A stretch of 64,000 nt of DNA from Plasmodiophora brassicae (lineage: Eukaryota), in NCBI GenBank assembly GCA_036867785.1, contig CP145409.1, positions 1,054,001 through 1,118,000 on the forward strand. Direction: 5' to 3'. The notes beneath the pieces were generated by a model. It did no database searches. It was given only the letters and a program-made list of their open reading frames with translations, and was not told the origin of the DNA. How positions within the stretch are numbered: position 1 is the first letter of the stretch; every line of letters begins with the position of its first letter. Both the position numbers and the translations under genes were made by a program. Below, in pieces: positions 6,220 through 60,548 of the stretch.

Positions 6220-7347
6220 TCATATCGGCATGGCCGGCGCGTGCATGGCCGGTGGTTCGATCACGATGTGATGTTTGGGCTCAACCGTGTCGTCCTTAAA
6301 GGGTTCGTCGTCGACAGTCCAAAAGACATAGGCAACGTAGATGGTCACCATTACGTCGATGAAGAATGACAGGGAGCGGAAAACCAACTGCATGCCAGGA
6401 GGCGACTCGAAGCCGAGGTGTGGCATACCAGCCAGAAAGAGAAGATAATTCGAGCACGCGTGCAGGACCATCTGCTTCCAGACGCCGGGCAGTGTGACCA
6501 TGAAGCGATGCCGCTGCCGATCGATCATGCGAGATATTGCTTGTCCGGACATGACGGCGCAGGCAACGTGAAACGGGATGCACAGCAGCGTCCTTATCAT
6601 GATCGTGGACAGCGACGTGCCCTCGCACGACATGACACGCCAGTAATAGAGCAGGTTCTCTGCAGTGGCAAACGATAACCCACTGGTGACGGCACACAAG
6701 GTGACCTGCAGGCGAGAGCGCGGTCGACCGAGACGCTTCGCTGCGACAGACGTTAGCCACCACTTGTACAACTCCTCCCAAACGCCCGGAGAGATTGCAA
6801 TCGCTATCAGGTAGAACACGTAGATCCTCCAGGTTCCCTGCTGCAACTCGTCTTTGGCGTCACGCCCGGACAGTACCATTTTCATGGCGACACGAGAGGT
6901 AGTCGTGTTGAGCACGTAGGGGATGAACGTACAGATGAACCCGAGCGCGTAGACCAGTGTCAGATCCGTGGTCGTCATGGGATGGACGCGGTCTCTACGC
7001 TGCTGGCGGAGCGCGTTCCACAGGAACAGGAGAGCAGTCGGGGACAACAGCATCGGGAACAGGTAGAACGACGACTTGTGGAAGCGAACTGTGAAGACGA
7101 CCCAGAGTAACAGGATCAAGCCCCAGAACAAGGCCGTCAACGCGCGGCCAGCGGACGTCGCCATTACAGCGGAACGACACGGCAGCACCTGATGACGACC
7201 TCGGAACGAGTGACGAACCTGCAGAAAACCTATAATTAGGCACACCGACAGGCCGAGTGTACGTAGTGTCGAACTTTGCACTGTGGCTGGCATGCGCTGT
7301 ACGTCCCAGGTGCATTCACCATCGCTATCGCCTTGGAATGCGATCAT
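6220..7347 (-). CDS. PrsW-family (glutamic-type) intramembrane protease
   Basis: Multi-TM protein with the four PrsW motifs: EELYK, GLSFATAENLLY, RTLLCIPFH and LHACSN. True start uncertain; a plausible ATG is at 7164. Confidence 0.85.
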   Translation of the reverse strand: MIAFQGDSDGECTWDVQRMPATVQSSTLRTLGLSVCLIIGFLQVRHSFRGRHQVLPCRSAVMATSAGRALTALFWGLILLLWVVFTVRFHKSSFYLFPMLLSPTALLFLWNALRQQRRDRVHPMTTTDLTLVYALGFICTFIPYVLNTTTSRVAMKMVLSGRDAKDELQQGTWRIYVFYLIAIAISPGVWEELYKWWLTSVAAKRLGRPRSRLQVTLCAVTSGLSFATAENLLYYWRVMSCEGTSLSTIMIRTLLCIPFHVACAVMSGQAISRMIDRQRHRFMVTLPGVWKQMVLHACSNYLLFLAGMPHLGFESPPGMQLVFRSLSFFIDVMVTIYVAYVFWTVDDEPFKDDTVEPKHHIVIEPPAMHAPAMPI

Positions 7348-22900: not shown

Positions 22901-25447
22901 ATGAGGAGAGCTGACGCCGGGGCGCTGTCCGCTGCTGTTATATCTACGCTGGTTCTTTCAACCTGGGCTCTGCCGACCCCCTTCGTCCTAGTTGGTCCCG
23001 CGACATCAGCGACCGCAGGTGCAACTGTCGACATCAGTGGCCTTCCTACAGGCATACCTTGGCAGTACACGGGTGTGATATACCGCACATACCTGTAACT
23101 TCGATATATGGACGTCCTGATCCGCCCTACTTAGAGTACACATATTGTTTCTACCTTCGCATCGATGGCCTTCCGAGTTCATGGTCCAGCGTCTGGGGCT
23201 GGCAGCGCACCACAGCTCGTAGCGTCGTTCATGTTTGCGCACATCAGCACATCCTTATCTAGGCGTTCCACAGTGCCTGGAGAGCAGTACAACGCTATGC
23301 CCGCGGTCTGGGTCTACGCCGACGGCAGGCTTTCGTTCGCGGTGTCGACCTCCTCCAATCCGAACGTCTGGACGTATTCGCAAACGTCGCTGTCAGTAGG
23401 ACAATGGTACTTCGTTGCGATCACTGTCTCCCAATCGCAATCGACAGCGGAAATACGGGTCAAAACCGTTGACCTGTCGGTACAGACGCTTGCGTGTATG
23501 TACTGGACATCGGGGGCCACGCTGACCACCGATTCGAGTTCCGCTCTGTACATTTCCGAACGGACGTCAGGGACGGCGTACGTGCTGGTCCGGCCAGCGT
23601 TCGTTGGACAAGTTCGCCAGCTGACGTTCTTCACGAGCGTCCTGACTGACACCGACATTGTCACATATCTGAACCTATGCAACTCGATGGCATTCCCACC
23701 GCCGTCGCCAGGAACGCAAAGTCAGGCGCACGTCCTCGTTGACGGCCCAATTTCAGCCGGTGCAGGAAGGGTCGTTTCTTTATCCAGCCAACCTGCTGGT
23801 ATTCCCTGGCTGTCCACAGGTACATGCTGCGTCAGCTGCTGTACAGCAGCGACACTGACGACGTGTTGAAACGCAGAGTATACGTACTGCTTCCTGATTC
23901 GGATTGATTCCCTGCCAGCGGACTGGCACAGCGTGTGGGGGTGGCAACGAATTACTGCCGGTAACACGAGTCAGTTCCGAGTGCGATGGTCGCTGTCTCA
24001 CAGAGGATACAGTATCTGGCGAACAGTATAATGCGATGCCGGCAGTTTGGGTCTATTCGGACGGGCGATTGTCCTTCTCTGTATCAACGACAACGTCGTC
24101 GAACTGGTGGACGTATTCCCAAACGCCTGTCCCGTTGGGTGCCTGGACGTTCATCGCTTTGACCGTGTCCCAGTCGCAATCGCAAGCATCGATCACGGTC
24201 ACGTCCCCGAACGCATTAACCAGCTCGACTGCTTACATTGCTGGGTTCTCCGGCACATTGGTCACCGATTCCAGTGCGGCGCTTTACGTGTCGGAGCGCA
24301 CGTCGGGCACGGGTTACGTTACGGCCCCACCACCATTCGTGGGCCAGATCCGCAAGCTGACCTACTTTGACACTGTGCTGTCCAACGCTGAGATCATGTC
24401 CTACATGGCCTCTTGTACCACACCGGCACCGACGCCACCACTGCCGGTACCGTCTCCAGCAGCGGCACCGACGCCGGCGCCCACCCTAGCACCAACTCCA
24501 GTGCGCTCACCGGCACCGACTCCCTCGCCGACCTTGGCGACAGCTCCAGTCCCGATCACAGCACCCACTTTGGCACCAACACCAACCGCAGCACCAGCTT
24601 TTGCACCAACTCCACCACCGACTCCTGGACCAAACGCAGCACCGAGTCATGTTGCGACTGGAAAGCGCCACGTGTCATCTTCGGCGCGGGCCTCGCCTGG
24701 CTTTCGTAAGACGGTCGTGGTCTCTGTCCGCGCTGTGAACCAATCCTCCACAGGGTCAAGCGTTCCCCGTGTCGGTATCGGTCAAACCGGATCGTCAGTC
24801 GCTCTACCGTCGTCCAAATTTCGCAAGACAGGGCCCGCGAAGTCGTCGACCAGGGTACCACGTGTTGGTTCGTGCTTGTCACCGTCACTCGCTGACATGC
24901 CTTGTGCAGGCGGTATCGTCCATCAGAGCTGTGGCATCTCGACGAACAAACCCGCCGATGGATCTTGTGCACCTGACCGTCCGACGGAAGGCGGTCGTCC
25001 AGCAGCAGCCCTGGCAATGGACCGGCAAGCCCCGCGACGACGACACTGGCCATCTTGACGGTAGCCACCCTAGGAGTCATCGTGATGGCTGCTTGCCTGT
25101 CCGTCTTCCTACTCTATCGCCGGCAGCGTCTGGAAATCTGGAGGCGGTATGCCACGTCCATGGGCGGACCACCGCAAACGAGATACGGTTCGGACACGAC
25201 TGTGCACGCCAGCAGAGCACCCATTAACGATGCCGACCCGGCGGACGCACGCCAAGGCGCCGCAATGTCGTTCTTCTTCCCGAATAATGCATCGTCGCCG
25301 CCAATAGCATCGGCCAGGTCGGTTTCGACGGGATCGTCCGGCTACAACCGCAGCCACACTGATCACCGGCGCCTGCACGGGCGGGCGCTGCGTTCGGCAC
25401 CGCCCGCGCCCGACAGCGATGCCGCCACAACCTGGCCCGCCCCATAG
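22901..25447 (+). CDS. Type I membrane protein with two LamG/ConA-like domains, Pro/Thr stalk, TM and cytoplasmic tail
   Basis: Signal peptide. Duplicated module EYTYCF..RID..GEQYNAMPAVWVY.DGRLSF.VST...W.F.A.TVSQSQS...LY.SERTSGT...FVGQ.R.LT.F. PTPAPT repeats, then TM VATLGVIVMAACLSVFLLY-RR. Confidence 0.75.
24418..24645 (+). repeat. Degenerate coding repeat (APTP) forming a mucin-like stalk
   Basis: Recurrent gcaccgac/gcaccaac units encoding TPAPTPP..APTPAPTLAPTP..APTPSPT..APTLAPTPT. Confidence 0.7.
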
Positions 25448-30524: not shown

Positions 30525-32803
<2,279 letters not shown>

Positions 32804-33291
32804 TTACCGACGGTGTCACATCCCGCCAGACGCCAACGTTCGAATCTTTGGTTGTCCGCTATTAGCCCTCGTTGTCAACGCGCCTGCTGAAAAGACGACC
32901 ACGATTTTTGTGGTACTTGTGTTCGACAGCGTCGCAGCCACGAGCGTCCAGGTTCCAGGATGACAGAATATTCAGGCACACCGGGAGTCCCTGATGCGGA
33001 CAGTCTTCACGACTTACATGCAGTTTGCAGTAAAACCCCATGTGGAACAACAGGAGCTCAGCAGTCCAACGTGGACATGTCTCACACACGCGACATGCAC
33101 GAAGCCGGTTGGAGTAGTTGCTATGTGTTTGTTTCGTCGGTCGATGGCCCCGGATTGCGGCGCCATCAGGCCAGCACAGGCCCAGTCCTCAGGATCCCGC
33201 GATCCATCATTCATGTCCGATCGCGGGTTTCTGGCTCAAATCTAAATTTGCTCCACGGGGCTGTGGTCACAATTAGCAGTCGAACGACCTG

Positions 33292-34914
33292 ATGACGTCC
33301 TTGTCGATTGGCGCCGTCATCCTTCTGTGTCTAGGTCGCATTGTGAATCGGACGACGGCATCACGTGACACGCTGACGTTGATAGTTTGCAGGGCCAGTG
33401 TCGACGTTTGGAAACGTCGTCTTTCCCTTTAGTCGAGGTGCTGCACAGAACCTGTCAATCTACAGTCCGGCAGTGTCCCGGTTCCTAGGTCCACAGGTCG
33501 ACGACAGACTTGCCCCTGTCGTGCTTCCCGTGTACGTCTTCCGCGGGGACACCTGTAATCCCGACAATATTGATGAGGACGTCGTTCGCGATCGTGCCAT
33601 CGTTATCGCCGGCAACCGAGCTTGTAGCTACACGCGACGTTTCGTCAGTTTAGCCACAAAGGGTGCTGCCGCCATCCTAGGTACGTGCCTGTGTTCCGTT
33701 TAATGGTGTTTGAGTACAGTCGCAGAAACGCTGAGCTGGTGCCCTCGTTAGACACACCTGCATCCGATGCCCAGCCGGGCCGGTACGTTCACTTCCGCGA
33801 TGGGTCTGAATCCGAATGGCATCGTCGGCATCCGATGCTCCTTGTCGAGCTCGACTGTGGCTTGCGCGCTGTCGATGTCATCATGAAGGAAGCGGATTCG
33901 CCGGCTGGGTTGACCGTCCGGATCACGATCGACAGCAACGAGTGGATCGGGACTTTCGCGGCGTGGCCATACCAGGTCTTCGTACGATGGGTCCCATCGA
34001 TAATATTTGGTATCGCCGGTGTCGCGGGCGCCTACTTCCTCGCTGTCCACTTTCTACTGATCAACGACCGGTTCGTGGCGAGCACAGTCGAAAAGCGGCG
34101 AACATGGCGCCGGCGCATTGCCTCCGTCGTGAACGGTTTCGTCAGCGGGCACTTAATCGCGCTTGCGTTTGACACGGTCGCCTCCGCTACAATGTCGGTT
34201 GTCATCGGCGTCACCGGGTTCTATTCAACGTCGAACGCGCCGGCATGGGTGACGCTCTTCTTCACAATGCAAATGTCCGGGTGGGCCTTCGTCGCCACGT
34301 TTGTGTCCTCGATTGTCTGGGTGCAGCGCCTCGAGCGGATCATTCCCCGGTCCAGGCGCCGTTACTGCTGGCGTCTAATCAGTTTGCTCCATGGGGATCA
34401 CCCGCGGGTCACCATCGTCGCCTGCCTCGTCTTCTTCCTGCTCGAAGTTGCGATCGACATCTGGTACGCTACGTGGCAGAACTGGAGATCGAGATGGTTC
34501 CCCTTCGCGCCGCTGGTCGCGGGCATCTTTGCCCTGCTCGAGCTGATCCTGGGCGCGAATTTCCTCGTCGGCACTGGACGATATCTGTACGAGGTCTCTA
34601 AGACGACCATCGACCAACGCGACACGGCCGTACATCGTGTCCTACGCCGTATCTGGTGGTGCGCCTTGCTGATCGGCCTGTCCATGATGCTCTACGTAGT
34701 CTGTGGCGTCGCCATGATCGCCTTCTACAAGTGGGCCTTCCGTCCAACCGGATGGACCGTTGTTTGGGGCACCGGCTCTATTGCCAGAGCAACTGGCTGT
34801 CTGGCCCGTGTGTTCGTGTTCCAGCCCCGGCCGCGGCGACGCGCGCGACAGCAACACCTGACTATTCAAGGCAAATCTGACTCACTGCGGATGAGGTCCA
34901 CATCCGAAGCATAG
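33292..34914 (+). CDS. Signal peptide, PA (protease-associated)-like ectodomain and 7TM receptor-like protein
   Basis: MTSLSIGAVILLCL, intron, then TCNP...RAIVIAGNRACSYTRRFVSLATKGAAAIL (PA motif), intron, then about seven hydrophobic helices with basic intracellular loops. Confidence 0.65.
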
Positions 34915-35462
34915 AAAGCGGGGGCACATCCTTGTGCAGGAGTAATGCATTCGTCAGAGTGGCCTCCAGTCGCAAGGCTGTTCTTGGTACAGATCGACTA
35001 TTGTAGCGCTCCTGCTCGACTCTGAGCATGAGGCAATGGTCACGTAAACTACATAATGCCTTTGTCAAAACGGGCAGCGACATCCTCTTGGACCCGTACG
35101 ATCATGAGGAGGTCGACTAATGAAGCGGCGCGGTACCGGAGTTGCCCTTCTCACACCGTTCTTGCGGCTGCTATGTCCTAGCTCCATTTTCCCAACAGCA
35201 TATTCGAAGATAGGACGTAGGAAACAGCTGCAATAATGGTACCTCAACACGTCCTATCGAGTCCCGGCCGTTGTGCCGGCGTCCACGGTCCAATGTGGCC
35301 TCCCGTGCCCTACGTTACACATGCCTGCATGCTGGCTCAGTACACTAGTACCGTCCTGCTCACAACGTTACCGGAAAGGTCCCGCCGGTGGTGCCCGTCC
35401 GTCCTGGCCAGTGAAGTTTCCGGGGTCAGACGTCACAAACGAAAGGAGCTGTTCGGGCGCGT

Positions 35463-54025: not shown

Positions 54026-55474
54026 TTACTGTGGTATAATGGATGCAGTCCTCCTCTCGCCAACGGTGACGAATATCGGACCGTTCTGAGCCGTATTGCG
54101 TCGGTCTACGGATTGATCGCCTACGCCATGCGACATGAGGACTCCCCGCAGGCGCCGTTCATGTTCGACCTTCTCGGCGAACTGCTCCCAGGCGTCCGAG
54201 TGCTCCAGCTTGAACCTTACAAAGGTATCCGAGTCCATCAGCCTAAGGATTTCCTTCTGGGCGCTCGTGAACATATTCCTGTGCAGGAGCGTGCTATCCT
54301 TGATCTGGTTGTTGCGGAACGCTCGCACAAAACTGGACGACAGGTTCACCTCCTGAGGAGCTCCTGAGGCCAGATACTCGTGATAGATCTGTCGCGCCAT
54401 GCTGAGGTTGTCATCCGAGGTACGCCTCGCGTAGTCGTCCCTGAACGACGCGACCGCGATGAAGAAGTTGAGGTTCTCACTGGCCATCTCTTTGTCGCAG
54501 AACGCCTTGAATTTCGCACAACCTTCTGGGCTCTTGATGAACTTCTCCAGCAATTGCAGGTCGTCATCGGAGTCGGTGTCGGCCATAAAGATTGGGAAAA
54601 CCATGGTCGTGATGACCAGGGTCGCAAAGACATACCCGAAGTTGTGCACTTCAGTGAAGACATCCGTCCAGAACGCATCCCTGGTAAATGCGGCCCTGGT
54701 CAGCGCGTCGATGTTGATCGCACCAAGACCGATGAAGTCGAGGGCCACAAACACGGCCTGCATGATGTTCAACATGATGTAGAATTGCATGCGGTGCTCG
54801 ACGGAAGGCGTCAGCGTCAACTGCTGTAGCAGGTTGCGCATGCGGACGACAATGCTGACCGTCAGGGCAATGATAATGATGCCCTCTGCGTGGTAGACCA
54901 GCTGTGGGTAGACGATGGACATGGAGACAGTCGGGGCCACCGCTTGTGCAATCGGGTACAACGCCAACGATAGAACCGAATACGCCTCGTATGCCAGGAA
55001 CTCCCAAGTACGACCGAACGAAACGCCCAGATGCTTCTTAACCGTAACATGCCAGTAGGCGAGGCCGAGAAAATGTGCACTGCTCTTCAGCGCGAATGAT
55101 ACGTTCAGCAGCTCGTTGCAGATTGGGAGCAGTGTAAACTGATCATAGGCGCTCCACTGGGCGGCCGGCAGTGGTACCACCTGGACAACGTCCTTGTGCG
55201 CCGAGTACTGGGTGACCAGGTATCCCTCCGTATACTTGATCTTGACGTTGATTGATTGATAGATGACCATGAGAATTAAGGAGACGAGGTTCAGGATGGC
55301 CAGGATGCCTTGGATGTTGGGCTGCCGTGTCCTCACGCTGATCGGGCGCAAGACGGCGATCCCCTGCTTGTTCTGTACGATACGTATCACCAGGTATACG
55401 GTCGAGATCGTCATCAGGGCGCACCGCTCAACGTACGACAGCGGTGCCAGATGTGACAACGCCAGCGGCAACAT
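54026..55474 (-). CDS. 7TM-RGS protein, family B, copy B1 (intronless)
   Basis: Seven hydrophobic helices, then RGS: FKAFCDKEMASENLNFF, ARQIYHEYLASGAPQEVNLS, FTSAQKEILRLMDSDTFVRF. Confidence 0.92.
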   Translation of the reverse strand: MLPLALSHLAPLSYVERCALMTISTVYLVIRIVQNKQGIAVLRPISVRTRQPNIQGILAILNLVSLILMVIYQSINVKIKYTEGYLVTQYSAHKDVVQVVPLPAAQWSAYDQFTLLPICNELLNVSFALKSSAHFLGLAYWHVTVKKHLGVSFGRTWEFLAYEAYSVLSLALYPIAQAVAPTVSMSIVYPQLVYHAEGIIIIALTVSIVVRMRNLLQQLTLTPSVEHRMQFYIMLNIMQAVFVALDFIGLGAINIDALTRAAFTRDAFWTDVFTEVHNFGYVFATLVITTMVFPIFMADTDSDDDLQLLEKFIKSPEGCAKFKAFCDKEMASENLNFFIAVASFRDDYARRTSDDNLSMARQIYHEYLASGAPQEVNLSSSFVRAFRNNQIKDSTLLHRNMFTSAQKEILRLMDSDTFVRFKLEHSDAWEQFAEKVEHERRLRGVLMSHGVGDQSVDRRNTAQNGPIFVTVGERRTASIIPQ

Positions 55475-55744
55475 GATGAACCACCGCTCTTGGCAGGCAA
55501 ATGCTGCACACGGATGGTGCGATCGCCCATAGGTACCAGCCCATATATCGTGCGAATCTCCATGACCTTCGATTGGTCAATCTCACAACGAAGGGCGGGA
55601 GGCACTGCTGAATAGCCGTAACTCTTCCCCCAAGCTCGACTTCCAACAGACCGACATTAGGAAGTTGCCATGAGGCACTCAGCATTGGTAAAGAAGGGGA
55701 CTGCGCCGACAACTCCTATTATGAATATACGCTGCGCAGGACCT

Positions 55745-57187
55745 TCATTTGTTGGATCGGCTGTCGAGCGGCATCTTTGTCTCGCCAACGTGGACTTGTA
55801 CACTGCCGTACTGCATGAGCCGGGACTGATCACCGACGCCCTCCGACTGGAGAGCGCCTCGGAGACGTTGCTCCTGCTCGACCTTCTCGGCGAATTGCCT
55901 CCACATGGCAGGGTTCTCGACCTTGAATCGGGCAAACGTGTCCGCGTCCATCAACTTGAAGATTTCTTGCTGCGCGATAGCGAACGTGTTCTCGTGTAGA
56001 AGCGCGCCGTCTATGAACTGGTTGCTGCGAAATGCTCGCACGAAATTGGACGACAGGTTCACTTCCTGAGGGGCGCCAGGCGCCAGATATTCGTGATAGA
56101 TCTGTCTGGCCAAGCAAAGGTTCTCATCCGGTGATCGCTTCGCGTAATCGTTCTTGAACGACACGGCGGCGAGGAAGAAGTTGACGTTCTCGCTGGCCAT
56201 CTCCTTGTCGCAGAACTCCTTGAACTTCGCTCGCCCCTCCGGGGTCAAAATGAATTTCTCCAGCATTCGTACGTTGCCAGCCGACTCTGCCTCGTTCGCG
56301 AATATGGGGAACACCATGGTCGTGATGACAATTGTCGCAAATGCATACCCGATGTTGAACACCTCGGTAAAGATGTCCGTCCAGAAGGCATTCTTTGTGA
56401 AGGCACCTCTCGTGATCGTGTCGATATTGATGGCACCGAGGCCCACGAAATCCATCGCCACAAACACCGCCTGCAGGATGTTCAGCGTGATGTAGAATTG
56501 CATGCGACGTACGGCGGATGGCGGCAAGGACAACAATTTCATCAGATTGCGCATGCGAACAACGATGCTGACTGTCAATGCGACAATAATGATGCCCTCC
56601 ACGTGGTAGATTAGTTGCGGGTACACGATGGACAACGAGACGGTTGGAGCGGCGGATTGTGCAATCGGGTACAACGCCAATGACAGAAACGAATAGGCCT
56701 CATACGCGACAAATTCCCATGTTCGCCCGAAAGACACTCCCAAATGTTTCTTCACCGTCACGTGCCAGTAGGCGAGGCCGAGGAAATGTGCACTGCTCTT
56801 CAGCGCGAACGCCACATTCAGTAACTCATTGCAGACGGGAAGCAGTGTGAACTGATCGTAGCCGTTCCACATGCCCGCCGGCAGAGGTACAGCGTGGACA
56901 ACGTCCTTCTGCGTCATGTACTCGGTGACCAGGTACCCCTCCGTGTATTTGACCTTGACGTTGATGGCGTTGTAAACATCGTAAACGATCAGGGAAATGA
57001 GGTTTAAAACGGCGACGATGCCTTGGATGTTGGGCTGTCGCGTCTTCGTGTTGATCGGGCACAGGACGGCGATTCCCTGCTTGTTCTGTGCAATGCGAAC
57101 CACCAGGTATAAGAGCGATATTGTCAGCAGAGCGCACCGGTCCATGTACGACAACGGCGGTAGATGCGACAACACAATCGGGAACAT
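55745..57187 (-). CDS. 7TM-RGS protein, family B, copy B2
   Basis: Collinear paralog of B1 (KYTEGY, FALKSSAHFLGLAYW, FGRTWEF, SENVNFF, APQEVNLS). Start MFPIVLSHL assigned by homology. Confidence 0.92.
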   Translation of the reverse strand: MFPIVLSHLPPLSYMDRCALLTISLLYLVVRIAQNKQGIAVLCPINTKTRQPNIQGIVAVLNLISLIVYDVYNAINVKVKYTEGYLVTEYMTQKDVVHAVPLPAGMWNGYDQFTLLPVCNELLNVAFALKSSAHFLGLAYWHVTVKKHLGVSFGRTWEFVAYEAYSFLSLALYPIAQSAAPTVSLSIVYPQLIYHVEGIIIVALTVSIVVRMRNLMKLLSLPPSAVRRMQFYITLNILQAVFVAMDFVGLGAINIDTITRGAFTKNAFWTDIFTEVFNIGYAFATIVITTMVFPIFANEAESAGNVRMLEKFILTPEGRAKFKEFCDKEMASENVNFFLAAVSFKNDYAKRSPDENLCLARQIYHEYLAPGAPQEVNLSSNFVRAFRSNQFIDGALLHENTFAIAQQEIFKLMDADTFARFKVENPAMWRQFAEKVEQEQRLRGALQSEGVGDQSRLMQYGSVQVHVGETKMPLDSRSNK

Positions 57188-57999
57188 TGGTGTACGACGG
57201 TCGTTCGGATTGTGCCATACTTGTTGACGCACCGATCCGATCTGCGACCGTCCATGGTACTGAATAATATGGCAAATATCTTCCCGGCGAGTTCCGCAGC
57301 ATCCCTTTGGCCCTGAGAGATTGTCATTTATCGGCGCATGGCCACTGGACGTGTGACAGCGGCAATCGATCGTCGGGTTTCTTCTGCATCAGCTGGACAG
57401 ATTCTACCTGAGAAGAACACGAAGGCATGCTGAGGCGCCAACCTGCTTGGTCCAGAAACTTCGAATGCTCGCCTCGATGCCAAGGACGGGCATGGTCCCA
57501 GGTTTCAGGTGATTGGGCTTCCCGCGAATGCGAAGTGGCAAGCGCACGCGCTCGTGAGGCTTGGAGAAAGCAGACGGGGAGGCTCGCTCTGCATCGCTCG
57601 GCTGATATTCGCTGACGATCGCGGCGGGTTCTTCGACGGAAGGCAGTTCAGGATTTGAACAGATTCCACCCACCTCTTCCATTCACAAACATGCACGCTG
57701 GACTCTACGCCTGTATCGTAATCTCTGCGCCCAACGGCGCCGTTCTAGCCTCAGCATCAGCGATGGGCTGACCCAAGTCAATCAATCCAGCCTGCGGCTC
57801 CCGCACCGGCGCCGTCCACCTGTGCGTGCTGACGTCGATCGTACCGATGGCGTGACCGAGCATCGTCGTGTGGGAATGAACGCTCTCGACCTATTTGCGT
57901 TAACGTACATCGCGGTGTCCACAGAGTTGCCACTGTCCAGGTTTCGAGTTTCGCTGCGTTCTAGATTATCACTGCCACCCACGTGCCGGGCATTCATGT

Positions 58000-59439
58000 T
58001 TATACACGAGCTGCAGAAGTGGTTTGGCTCGTACCGCTAACGTGGATATGGACGCTGCTGGTCGGAATGAAGTGCGACTGGTCGCCGACGCCATTCGACA
58101 GGAGGGCACCTCGGAGACGTCGCTCCTGATCGACTTTCTCGGCGAACTGGTTCCACACTGCTGGGTTCTGGACCTTGAATCGCGCGAACGTTTCCGAATC
58201 CAACAACTTTAGGATCTCCTGCTGCGCGTATGTGAACGTATCTTCGAATAGAAGCGTGTCATCTTTGAACCCATTGGCTCGGAAACCTTCCACGGCATCG
58301 AAGGACAAGTTCACTTCTTGAGGGGCTCCAGGAGCCAGGTATTCGTTGTAGATCTGCTGAGCCAGGAGCAAGTTGTCCTCATGTGTGCGCCTCGCATAGT
58401 CGTCCTTGAACGCTGCGACCTGCAGGACGAAATTGATGTTCTCGCTGGCCATCACCTTCTCGCAGAACGTCTTGAACTTGGATCGTCCTTCTGGGGTCCT
58501 GATGAACTTCACCAACATCCGCACGTTGTCGGCAGCATCCGTTTCTTCCAGGAAAATGGGGAACACCATGGTCGTGATCACTATTGTCGCCAGCGCATAG
58601 CCAATGTTGAATATCGCAGTGAAGATATCTGTCCAAAAGGCGTTCTTCGTGAACGCGCCCGTCGTCATCGCATCGATGTTGATGGTGCCGAGGCCGATAA
58701 ACTCCAGCGCCACAAATACTGCCTGCATGACGTTCAGCGTGATGTAGAATTGCATGCGGCGCACCATCGAAGGAGGCAGCGACAGCTGTTGCAGGAGGCA
58801 GCGCATGCGAACGACGATGCTGATGGTCAGGATGACGACAATCAGGTTCTCAGCGTGGTAGACCAGCTGAGGGTATATGATCGACATGCCCACAGTGGGG
58901 GCGGCGGCTTGTGCAATCGGGTACAGGGCCAGCGATAGCACAGAATACGCTTCGTAGGCGAGGAACTCCCAGGTCCTTCCGAAGGACACGCCCAGCTGCT
59001 TCTTGACGGTCACATGCCAGTACGCCAGCGCCAAGAAGTGTGCGCTGCTCTTCAAGGCGAATGTCACGTTGATCAGCTCATTGCAGACCGGCAGCAATGC
59101 GAACTGGTCATTGGGACTCCACTTGCCGGCGGGCAGAGGGATCGCTTGGACAACGTCCTTCTCCGCCAAGTATTGGGTGACCAGGAATCCCTCCGTGTAC
59201 TTGATCTTGACGTTGATGACGTCATACACCTGGAAAAGGATCAAGGCAACGAGGTTCAGTGTGGCGATGAGGCCTTGGATGTTGGGCTGTCGCGTATTCA
59301 TGTTAACCGGGCGCAGCACGGCGAACCCATGCTTATTCTGGCTTAGGCGCAGTACCAAATAGACGAGCGACACCGACAGCAACACGAATCGTTCGATGTA
59401 GGAGAACGGCGCTAGGTGAGACAACGCCAGCGGGATCAT
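58000..59439 (-). CDS. 7TM-RGS protein, family B, copy B3
   Basis: Collinear paralog with start MIPLALSHL, SENINFV, APQEVNLS and LLDSETFARF. Confidence 0.92.
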   Translation of the reverse strand: MIPLALSHLAPFSYIERFVLLSVSLVYLVLRLSQNKHGFAVLRPVNMNTRQPNIQGLIATLNLVALILFQVYDVINVKIKYTEGFLVTQYLAEKDVVQAIPLPAGKWSPNDQFALLPVCNELINVTFALKSSAHFLALAYWHVTVKKQLGVSFGRTWEFLAYEAYSVLSLALYPIAQAAAPTVGMSIIYPQLVYHAENLIVVILTISIVVRMRCLLQQLSLPPSMVRRMQFYITLNVMQAVFVALEFIGLGTINIDAMTTGAFTKNAFWTDIFTAIFNIGYALATIVITTMVFPIFLEETDAADNVRMLVKFIRTPEGRSKFKTFCEKVMASENINFVLQVAAFKDDYARRTHEDNLLLAQQIYNEYLAPGAPQEVNLSFDAVEGFRANGFKDDTLLFEDTFTYAQQEILKLLDSETFARFKVQNPAVWNQFAEKVDQERRLRGALLSNGVGDQSHFIPTSSVHIHVSGTSQTTSAARV

Positions 59440-60548
59440 CGCGCCCGGCAACGGGATATTGCACACTGGAAAGGGCGCGGGAGATATGCACACGCGGACA
59501 ATATTATGCATCGCATCGGCGACAAAATATCTGCGCGAGCCCACTTTCAAATCTTCGGCTGTATGTACGTCGATGGTCTCGTGCGGTTTGCCGTACCAAG
59601 AAGTGGCCAGGGATCTCCCGGAATATCAATTTGCATTTCGGTTCCTCTACCAATCCGTGTTCATCAAATGTAACGCCGCGGCAGATCGGCTGAAACGGCA
59701 ACGTTCAGACAATGCAGATCGTCGGCATCGGCTATGAAGAGACGTTCGCGCCAGTAGCCAAACTAAATCGTTGACCGGAACCCATTGAGGTTAAGACGCC
59801 CTCGCAGCTGGTGAGCTGGAACAAATTCAGCGAGGTCTCGATCTCTCCCGCCCGCAAGGTCACAACGCTCTGATCGTCGACGACCTCGCACCCGTTCTTT
59901 CCCAAATCGCCTCGTCTGATGAGTGATTACCGAGCTGGCCTGCCTCCTCAACAGCACGTTCAAGACGACTGGACGCCAGACGCCGGAGTGGAACAACACA
60001 GTTTGGGTACCTGTCGCGGAAGTCTCTTCATAGGCGATGCCTCACTTCATACGCGGCCACACTGGTATTGTGTGTGCGGGGCTAGCCTCGATTCTTGCTG
60101 GAGCGTCAGTGAACACGTTCTCGTGTATGCGTTGAATTTGTACCGTTGCCCGGTAATTTGCCAGGTATCGTATAAGGCATTGCCCTGCATGTTTGGATTG
60201 CATTGCCGATACTGCCACCGGAATGGTCAACTTTCAATCCACAAGTCGCAGCTTCGCCCAGCACATTTTGAGACGATATCAGCTGAACCTCAGCACAATT
60301 GGACAGAACCAGACCCTCGACCGAACCAGGAACAGGTGTACTGCTTAAGCATACACGGAAACCGAGACATGTAGGACGCGGCACTGGATATGACGACGAC
60401 AGAAATCCATCGTGCACTGAAAGGCATCGTAAGAGACAGAGCAAGAAGATCAGCGAAAAAGATGATGCGACAGCGCCTACGTCCTCAAGTATGCCGATAA
60501 ACTAGCCAATGGCTGGACGGTGAGAGGTTCATTGGATGAAATCAGTCA

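Follow-up and report, generated by a model that had tools for sequence, protein, structure and literature searches.

What kind of protein places a protease-associated (PA) domain ahead of a bundle of about seven membrane helices? The question is raised by a gene at positions 33292..34914 of a 64,000-nucleotide (nt) stretch of Plasmodiophora brassicae DNA (assembly GCA_036867785.1, contig CP145409.1, positions 1,054,001 to 1,118,000 of the forward strand), hereafter the window, from whose first letter all positions are counted. PA domains are known in front of proteases, RING ligases, sorting receptors and the SPPL2 proteases, and bundles with the fold of G-protein-coupled receptors (GPCRs) have been described behind many types of ectodomain. 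The original prediction, drawn from the letters of the DNA, was that a PA-like ectodomain is here fused to some seven helices devoid of the YD and GxGD motifs of aspartyl proteases, and that this combination points to a receptor class sensing peptides or proteins. Our analysis supports that reading, with the function itself being read from the two folds. We find an intact, spliced and transcribed three-exon gene, whose product is predicted to join a PA ectodomain to a membrane body of GPCR fold. With modest confidence, we favour an orphan receptor that would sense a peptide or protein and signal inward; the type of ligand, the cellular location and the coupling to G proteins are what we infer here from the two folds.

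Splicing and gene structure

On the forward strand, the locus consists of three consecutive frame pieces: a short, ATG-led hydrophobic piece, then about 100 codons in another frame, and finally a 428-codon frame that ends in TAG. Contigs from four out of four public runs (X1, X6, X7 and X16, from four studies, whose RNA nature is a guess) join these pieces by skipping 58 and 71 nt, each skip with GT..AG ends, and the joined coding sequence of 1494 nt remains in frame up to a single terminal stop, with a product of 497 amino acids (aa). Both the ATG and the TAG of the original prediction proved exact, and the splicing on which its gene depended was recovered in every one of these runs. We take the joined form to be a transcript because its introns have canonical ends, the reading frame is restored, homology passes seamlessly over the junction, and the contigs carry untranslated extensions on both the 5' and the 3' side. 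The ATG at 33292 is preceded by an in-frame TAG (33274-33276), with no other ATG between it and the point, 33241, at which the X7 contig begins, and beyond the stop codon (34912-34914) the contigs extend to 35081-35300, which leaves a 3' untranslated region of at least ~170 nt. Two other acceptors for intron 2, at 33720 and 33726, were considered and ruled out: the contigs use 33752, the sole choice that preserves the frame.

The relatives of the protein lead to the same gene model. A hidden Markov model (HMM) of 17 full-length relatives matches the spliced 497-aa protein in one stretch, over residues 10-485 (E = 1.4e-114), and the exon 2/3 junction at residue 111 can be called seamless because this alignment has zero indels between residues 88 and 159. 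Homology of full-length relatives across the junctions thus supports the gene model independently of the contigs. By BLASTP, exons 2 and 3 are also colinear in a single paralog, P0005, which is annotated in P. brassicae as a 'PA domain-containing protein': exon 2 matches its residues 22-115 (39% identity, E = 2e-23), and exon 3 its residues 121-467 (32% identity, E = 2e-54).

Just upstream lies an open reading frame (ORF) of 110 codons (32960-33292, forward strand), whose TGA overlaps the ATG of the receptor gene. It is traversed by one deep contig, from X1; the contigs of X7, X16 and X6 start at 33241, 33289 and 33306. Gaps in the cover of X6 and X7, from about 33109 to 33240, were left out of the evidence. 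This ORF is probably upstream of the start of the receptor transcript, in a promoter or 5' region shared with a DEAD-box helicase gene that runs divergently from it (31337-32803, reverse strand).

The ectodomain and the membrane body

The protein opens with a signal-like segment (hydropathy peak over residues 1-28), followed by an ectodomain of ~150 aa with Cys69, Cys92 and Cys146 and one NxS site. In the membrane body, hydropathy gives six clear transmembrane (TM) peaks; a seventh helix (~445-468) is weaker and falls under the cut-off, and was assigned from its homologous counterpart in the P0005 model, helix 439-463; DSSP gives that model seven long helices. The helix count of about seven originally proposed was upheld in this way, with TM1 at ~190-214, TM2 at ~238-262, TM3 at ~277-300, TM4 at ~326-348, TM5 at ~360-385 and TM6 at ~413-437. 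Counts of Lys plus Arg in the loops alternate as 6/0/7/2/6, with 12 after TM6 (residues 434-497, TM7 included). The protein is accordingly oriented, in our prediction, with the N-terminus of its seven TM helices outside and the C-terminus inside, an arrangement that fits this alternation behind a signal peptide.

Which folds, then, do these two parts adopt? Structures were predicted for P0005, 32-39% identical to the window's own protein and colinear with its exons 2 and 3, and not for that protein itself. The full-length P0005 model, made with a 39-row family alignment, reached a predicted local distance difference test score (pLDDT) of 90.2 and a predicted template modelling score (pTM) of 0.86, and a model of its ectodomain, made with a 23-row alignment, a pLDDT of 92.0. 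When the ectodomain model was compared by VIA with 48,161 PDB representatives, ranks 1-18 were all PA-domain proteins (Z 11.1-7.4), and the first non-PA structure followed at Z 6.7. The best match was the PA domain of the plant sorting receptor VSR1 (4tjv; Z 11.1, root-mean-square deviation (rmsd) 2.9 Å, 135/165 residues, 13% identity), with a second VSR1 structure, 8r4y, at Z 11.0. Also within these 18 ranks are zebrafish N-glycanase, PaAP, bacterial M28 aminopeptidases, the SBT3 subtilase, the apical domain of the transferrin receptor (TfR), streptococcal proteases of the C5a-peptidase type and GCPII, together with the ligases ZNRF3, RNF43 and GRAIL (Z 9.8 to 9.0). Foldseek likewise lists RNF43 (4kng, E = 6e-4) and PaAP (E = 1e-3), then VSR1 and ZNRF3. 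Judged by these models, the ectodomain is clearly of PA fold, and on this point the original prediction stands.

By sequence alone, the PA assignment is no more than suggestive. Of 20 relatives, 7 give matches to PF02225, each at one shared position of the ectodomain (E from 4e-4 to 0.12), and these stay below the gathering score of 23.9 bits, the best being those of P0035 (20.9 bits, E = 4e-4), P0006 (19.2 bits) and P0008 (18.1 bits). Exon 2 shows the pattern that defines the PA core, namely a Cys, a buried β-strand, xCxF/Y, a helix ending in GA(x)A and then a strand, and the family profile aligns this stretch, at a non-significant E of 0.47, with the core of the PA domain in keratinase KP1/PaAP. 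The family's two nearly invariant Cys correspond to C69 and C92 of the window protein, and are predicted to form one conserved, disulfide-type pair within the ectodomain. The sole Pfam match in the exon translations, to ASC (E = 0.6), was dismissed as chance.

For the membrane body, VIA, which works independently of Foldseek, was run with the whole bundle of P0005 (residues 174-470), and its best 50 rows comprise 49 GPCRs and one designed GPCR-like fold. Their Z-scores of 19.4-16.2 exceed the background of Z ~13-14 stated for helical bundles, with an rmsd of ~4 Å across 237-273 residues, or 221 in the case of the designed one, 8oyy, and at their head is MRGPRD (9dqj; Z 19.4, rmsd 3.9 Å over 244 residues). 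Foldseek concurs on both parts of P0005, with PA proteins for the ectodomain and, throughout the matches listed, GPCRs for the bundle. No GOST, Wntless, SPP, transporter or channel structure is found among the 50 best VIA rows or the matches listed by Foldseek, which is not proof that the folds differ. On these models, the membrane body is of GPCR (rhodopsin-like) fold, outside class A and any named GPCR family; Pfam gives no 7tm, SPP or transporter family, either in the window pieces (E ≤ 10) or in 20 relatives (E ≤ 1). A resemblance of the membrane part to SPP/presenilin or to a transporter, which would have spoken against the receptor originally proposed, did not arise, and the nearest solved folds are GPCRs. 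The parts of the gene are collected in Table 1.

Table 1. Parts of the putative receptor gene, in positions of the window.
Feature	Position	Strand	Content	Basis
Exon 1	33292..33334	+	ATG and signal-peptide segment, hydrophobic; residues 1-14 and first base of codon 15	end at 33334 set by the 58-nt joint in 4/4 runs
Intron 1	33335..33392	+	58 nt, GT..AG	one contig each of X1, X6, X7 and X16 (cut +2)
Exon 2	33393..33680	+	residues 15-111, N-terminal half of PA-like ectodomain; conserved Cys pair C69/C92, one NxS site (N34), PA core motif stretch	
Intron 2	33681..33751	+	71 nt, GT..AG; frame kept	4/4 runs (cut +3)
Exon 3, whole	33752..34914	+		
Exon 3, first part	33752..33927	+	residues 111-169, C-terminal half of PA-like ectodomain	colinear with P0005 residues 121-167, within its PA-fold model
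Juxtamembrane motif	33928..33996	+	residues 170-192, (P)DxNxW ... (S)WxYQxFVRxxP	
Seven-helix membrane body	33976..34830	+	residues ~186-470	homologous P0005 region 174-470
Cytoplasmic tail	34831..34914	+	basic, Ser/Thr-containing; residues 471-497 and TAG stop	

Kinship and conservation across the family

How widely is this architecture distributed? A word-index search with exon 3 returned four clusters: the window's own ORF, two unnamed proteins 67% and 49% identical to it, and PBTT_03943 at 50%. When 1.84 billion representatives were scored with a profile of these four, 52 proteins passed E ≤ 1e-3, 41 of them at E ≤ 1e-10 and 26 at E ≤ 1e-30, in answer to the paralog search that the original prediction had called for. 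Many relatives are 460-520 aa long, with 150-190 residues before the membrane body; at least 120 aa lie ahead of the DxNx[WF] motif in 17 of 56 family proteins, and 15 of those 17 possess the Cys pair. Within the window itself, the receptor gene is the sole match of 57 family proteins by tblastn.

Judging from these sequence relationships, the receptor belongs to an uncharacterised, multi-paralog family of plasmodiophorids and at least one chytrid fungus. Names are available for a few members: beside PBTT_03943 and P0005, these are PBRA_000776 and a P. brassicae 'Receptor ligand binding region domain-containing protein', as well as the hypothetical protein HK099_008499 of Clydaea vesicula (P0035). 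The taxonomic range rests on these names and on leads from the ESM Atlas, in which the chytrid member matches three clusters at 0.95-0.96, with Endomyxa and Zoopagomycota as the commonest taxa. All ten Atlas structure rows for P0035 have a TM-score below 0.5, and the Atlas matches to the seven-helix part of the receptor are all below 0.9, and serve as leads only.

The deposited model PBTT_03943 (P0004) and many database ORFs of this family (P0002, P0003, P0009 and P0012-P0014) begin at one and the same Met, which lies in the PA domain's C-terminal half and aligns with residue 138 of the window protein. Exons at the 5' end are probably absent from these models, and the family may share a conserved intron upstream of residue 138. 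Gene models are corrected in this way, at least one deposited model (PBTT_03943) starting inside the PA domain.

The juxtamembrane stretch (P)DxNxW...WxYQxFVRxxP is among the most strongly conserved of the family, with D171 and N173 each kept in 35/36 proteins, W175 in 33/36, Y184 in 33/37, R189 in 34/37 and P192 in 35/37. The first outer loop has the consensus GGxxSTxNLP, and W300, at the end of TM3, is conserved in 38/38. Polar residues also recur within the membrane (counts are for the majority residue): D/E251 in TM2 (33/38), D/E342 in TM4 (30/38) and Q/E374 in TM5 (26/37). Further conserved positions are R410 at the start of TM6, PxGW at 442-445 before TM7, R456, R463-V464, F467 and P469, and the family motif RVxxFxP follows TM7.

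What the protein may do

We propose that the receptor would face either the cell surface or the lumen of an organelle, where its PA domain would capture a peptide or protein ligand, a role we suggest because PA domains act in this manner in VSR1, RNF43/ZNRF3, SPPL2 and the transferrin receptor. Occupancy by the ligand would then be relayed through the rigid, conserved stalk and the first outer loop to the seven-helix bundle, which would alter its conformation and signal to a partner in the cytoplasm, for which a heterotrimeric G protein is the most plausible candidate. GPCR-fold bundles transmit conformational changes across membranes. The conservation of the juxtamembrane stalk and first outer loop hints that PA domain and bundle are joined by a fixed mechanical link, and the pTM of the P0005 model fits a defined arrangement of the two domains.

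The window also holds three tandem, paralogous ORFs on the reverse strand (54029-59625; individually 54029-55576, 55748-57388 and 58003-59625) of 516-547 aa, each of which ends in an RGS domain (E = 2e-18, 8e-17 and 3e-15) preceded by 4-5 strongly hydrophobic segments. Such a tandem array of membrane-anchored RGS proteins recalls the plant 7TM-RGS1. The presence of these three genes shows that heterotrimeric G-protein signalling exists in this genome.

How does such a receptor compare with known systems? Class A GPCRs (MRGPRD 9dqj, HCAR1 8z87 and the PAF receptor 8xyd) have the same seven-helix fold and topology as the P0005 model (Z 19.4 to 17.9, rmsd ~3.9 Å over 244-265 residues), and are also N-out and C-in; the protein here ends in a short basic tail. 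They differ from it in sequence, however, with 5-15% identity, no Pfam 7tm match, no DRY at the end of TM3 and neither CWxP nor NPxxY in our protein, whose family has instead its own conserved set, made up of E/D in TM2, D/E in TM4, PxGW before TM7 and RVxxFxP after it. We know of no class A receptor with a PA ectodomain. The PA-TM-RING ligases (RNF43, ZNRF3, GRAIL/RNF128 and plant RMR) likewise carry a PA ectodomain directly before the membrane, but continue with one TM helix and a cytoplasmic RING, whereas the receptor has seven helices and a 27-residue tail; Pfam scans of the receptor pieces and 20 relatives gave no RING or EGF match. R-spondin is the protein ligand that the PA domain of RNF43 and ZNRF3 binds, according to an excerpt of PMC3905715 and to the titles of PDB entries.

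Could the protein sort cargo instead of signalling? In this main rival, to which we give a minor though real share of our belief, an endomembrane receptor would bind the sorting signals of cargo through a luminal PA domain, as plant VSR1 and RMR do, and its GPCR-fold bundle would act as a membrane anchor and trafficking module in the manner of GOST proteins, with no coupling to G proteins. The closest solved structures of the ectodomain do come from VSR1 (4tjv and 8r4y, and also 7f2i), in which the PA domain is again the N-terminal luminal or extracellular peptide-binding module of a membrane protein, and the activation motifs of class A are missing. ESM-feature leads for the seven-helix part, all below 0.9, include THH1/TOM1/TOM3, PRRT3 and GPR137_N, for which G-protein coupling is, to our knowledge, not established. 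VSR1, on the other hand, goes on to a central domain and EGF repeats before its single TM helix, and is 13% identical to the ectodomain; the Arg of its RGxCxF motif, which holds the C-terminus of the cargo, is not conserved at that position in the family alignment. GOST proteins (TMEM87, GPR107/108, GPR180 and Wntless) have a β-rich luminal domain before a GPCR-like seven-helix bundle, and traffic rather than signal. This overall design, the subject of a preprint consulted in extract (10.1101/2020.04.17.047217), is similar to that of the receptor, but the outer domain of GOST proteins is GOLD and that of the receptor is of PA fold. GOST and Wntless are also missing from the 50 best VIA rows (all Z ≥ 16.2), with the reservation already made, and dozens of divergent members are a trait more of sensory receptors than of sorting receptors with a housekeeping role.

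Improbable, in our view, is a seven-helix channel, transporter or scaffold that is no receptor, in which the PA domain would only dock a partner protease or ligase and the polar residues of TM2, TM4 and TM5 would form a site for an ion or substrate. These residues are indeed conserved and embedded in the membrane, PA domains often accompany enzymes, and many of the top VIA matches are peptidases; a buried acidic residue in TM2 is, however, also usual in GPCRs (D2.50), and neither the best 50 VIA rows and listed Foldseek matches nor Pfam, over the window pieces and 20 relatives, point to a channel or transporter. Already all but refuted is a divergent SPPL2-type intramembrane aspartyl protease, since proteases of the SPPL2 type combine nine TM helices with the catalytic motifs YD, GxGD and PAL. 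The protein here has seven helices, with GPCRs as nearest folds, and a scan of its sequence found none of the three motifs, in agreement with the absence of YD and GxGD reported from the outset; of 57 family proteins, 1 has GxGD, 17 have YD and 10 have PAL, none of them as a conserved column. SPPL2a/b/c are nonetheless the established example of a polytopic membrane body preceded by a PA domain, which, in the portion of PMC12043953 at hand, contributes to substrate recognition, and an SPPL5-like cluster makes up one of the Atlas structure rows for P0035, at a TM-score of 0.32, below the bar of the tool.

Several observations weigh against a signalling receptor with these two folds, and should be set beside those in its favour. 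Both folds come from a paralog 32-39% identical to the window protein, and that the runs with the spliced form are RNA is no more than a guess. At the level of sequence, no PA match came from a Pfam scan of the separate exon translations (E ≤ 10), and no Pfam family rose above threshold in the receptor pieces or in 20 relatives. Against PDB sequences, exon 2 had 0 matches at E ≤ 10, a first family profile had PsbZ as its best match (E = 0.068, not significant), and a second the keratinase KP1/PaAP core already mentioned, again short of significance (E = 0.47). The Foldseek E-values for the bundle are weak, the best being 4.3e-3 and none ≤ 1e-3 among the matches listed. Class A microswitches are lacking: CWxP occurs in 0/57 family proteins, NPxx[YF] in 5/57 and not in the window protein, and the only [DE]R[YFH] of the latter is at residue 216, after TM1 and not at the end of TM3. 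Canonical G-protein coupling cannot be assumed in their absence, and the GPCR fold also serves trafficking proteins that do not signal. Finally, the ectodomain and the membrane body have diverged to a similar extent (mean pairwise identity 24.6% and 27.7%), which offers no clear indication that a ligand-binding domain is evolving fast.

The window as a whole is eukaryotic in character, with a GC content of 52-66% per 2-kb window (mostly 55-61%) and ORFs that include Hsp70, a DEAD-box helicase, protein kinases, EF-Ts and an mRNA cap methyltransferase. On the reverse strand, a 375-aa ORF (6223-7347) with about four hydrophobic segments matches the PrsW intramembrane metalloproteases (PF13367, E = 2.3e-16), a mostly bacterial family, so that its occurrence in eukaryotic DNA may merit attention. 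Also on the reverse strand, one stop-to-stop frame (17-1426) covers a protein kinase domain (E = 1.8e-26) over its C-terminal two thirds, without the 5' end of the kinase part, and then an ANTH domain (E = 2.8e-15); we read it as an unusual kinase-ANTH fusion or, alternatively, as two genes in one frame. On the forward strand, two adjacent ORFs (23135-25055) each give a borderline match to Laminin_G_3/concanavalin-A-like lectins (E ~5e-6, just under the Pfam cut-off), and may be exons of a single secreted, lectin-like gene.

Our search of the full-text literature, which leaves most subscription journals outside its coverage, found no paper on a PA ectodomain joined to a GPCR-type body, or on this family. 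As far as we have checked, no description exists of the GPCR-fold body, of the family or of its range; the PA part is already recognised, in that automatic annotation calls one paralog 'PA domain-containing'. What would such a family mean? If it sorts cargo, a GPCR-fold bundle would have been recruited for trafficking a second time, independently of GOST. If it signals, as we favour, it would add a new ligand-capture module to the GPCR repertoire, and offer concrete candidates for surface sensors in the clubroot lineage, where host perception is little known. Going further, we could tentatively speculate, with a good deal more doubt than we attach to the receptor itself, that these 'PA-GPCRs' are an unrecognised GPCR class of plasmodiophorids and zoosporic or early-diverging fungi, in which the PA domain captures peptides or proteins of the host or environment and drives G-protein signalling. 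Perhaps they would then have roles in processes such as zoospore chemotaxis, encystment or intracellular development. An excerpt of a review reports that chemical inhibition of the GPCR pathway reduces clubroot symptoms (Bi et al. 2019, via PMC9180986), and, if the family does consist of such receptors, its members would be candidate upstream receptors of this inhibitor-sensitive GPCR pathway of P. brassicae.

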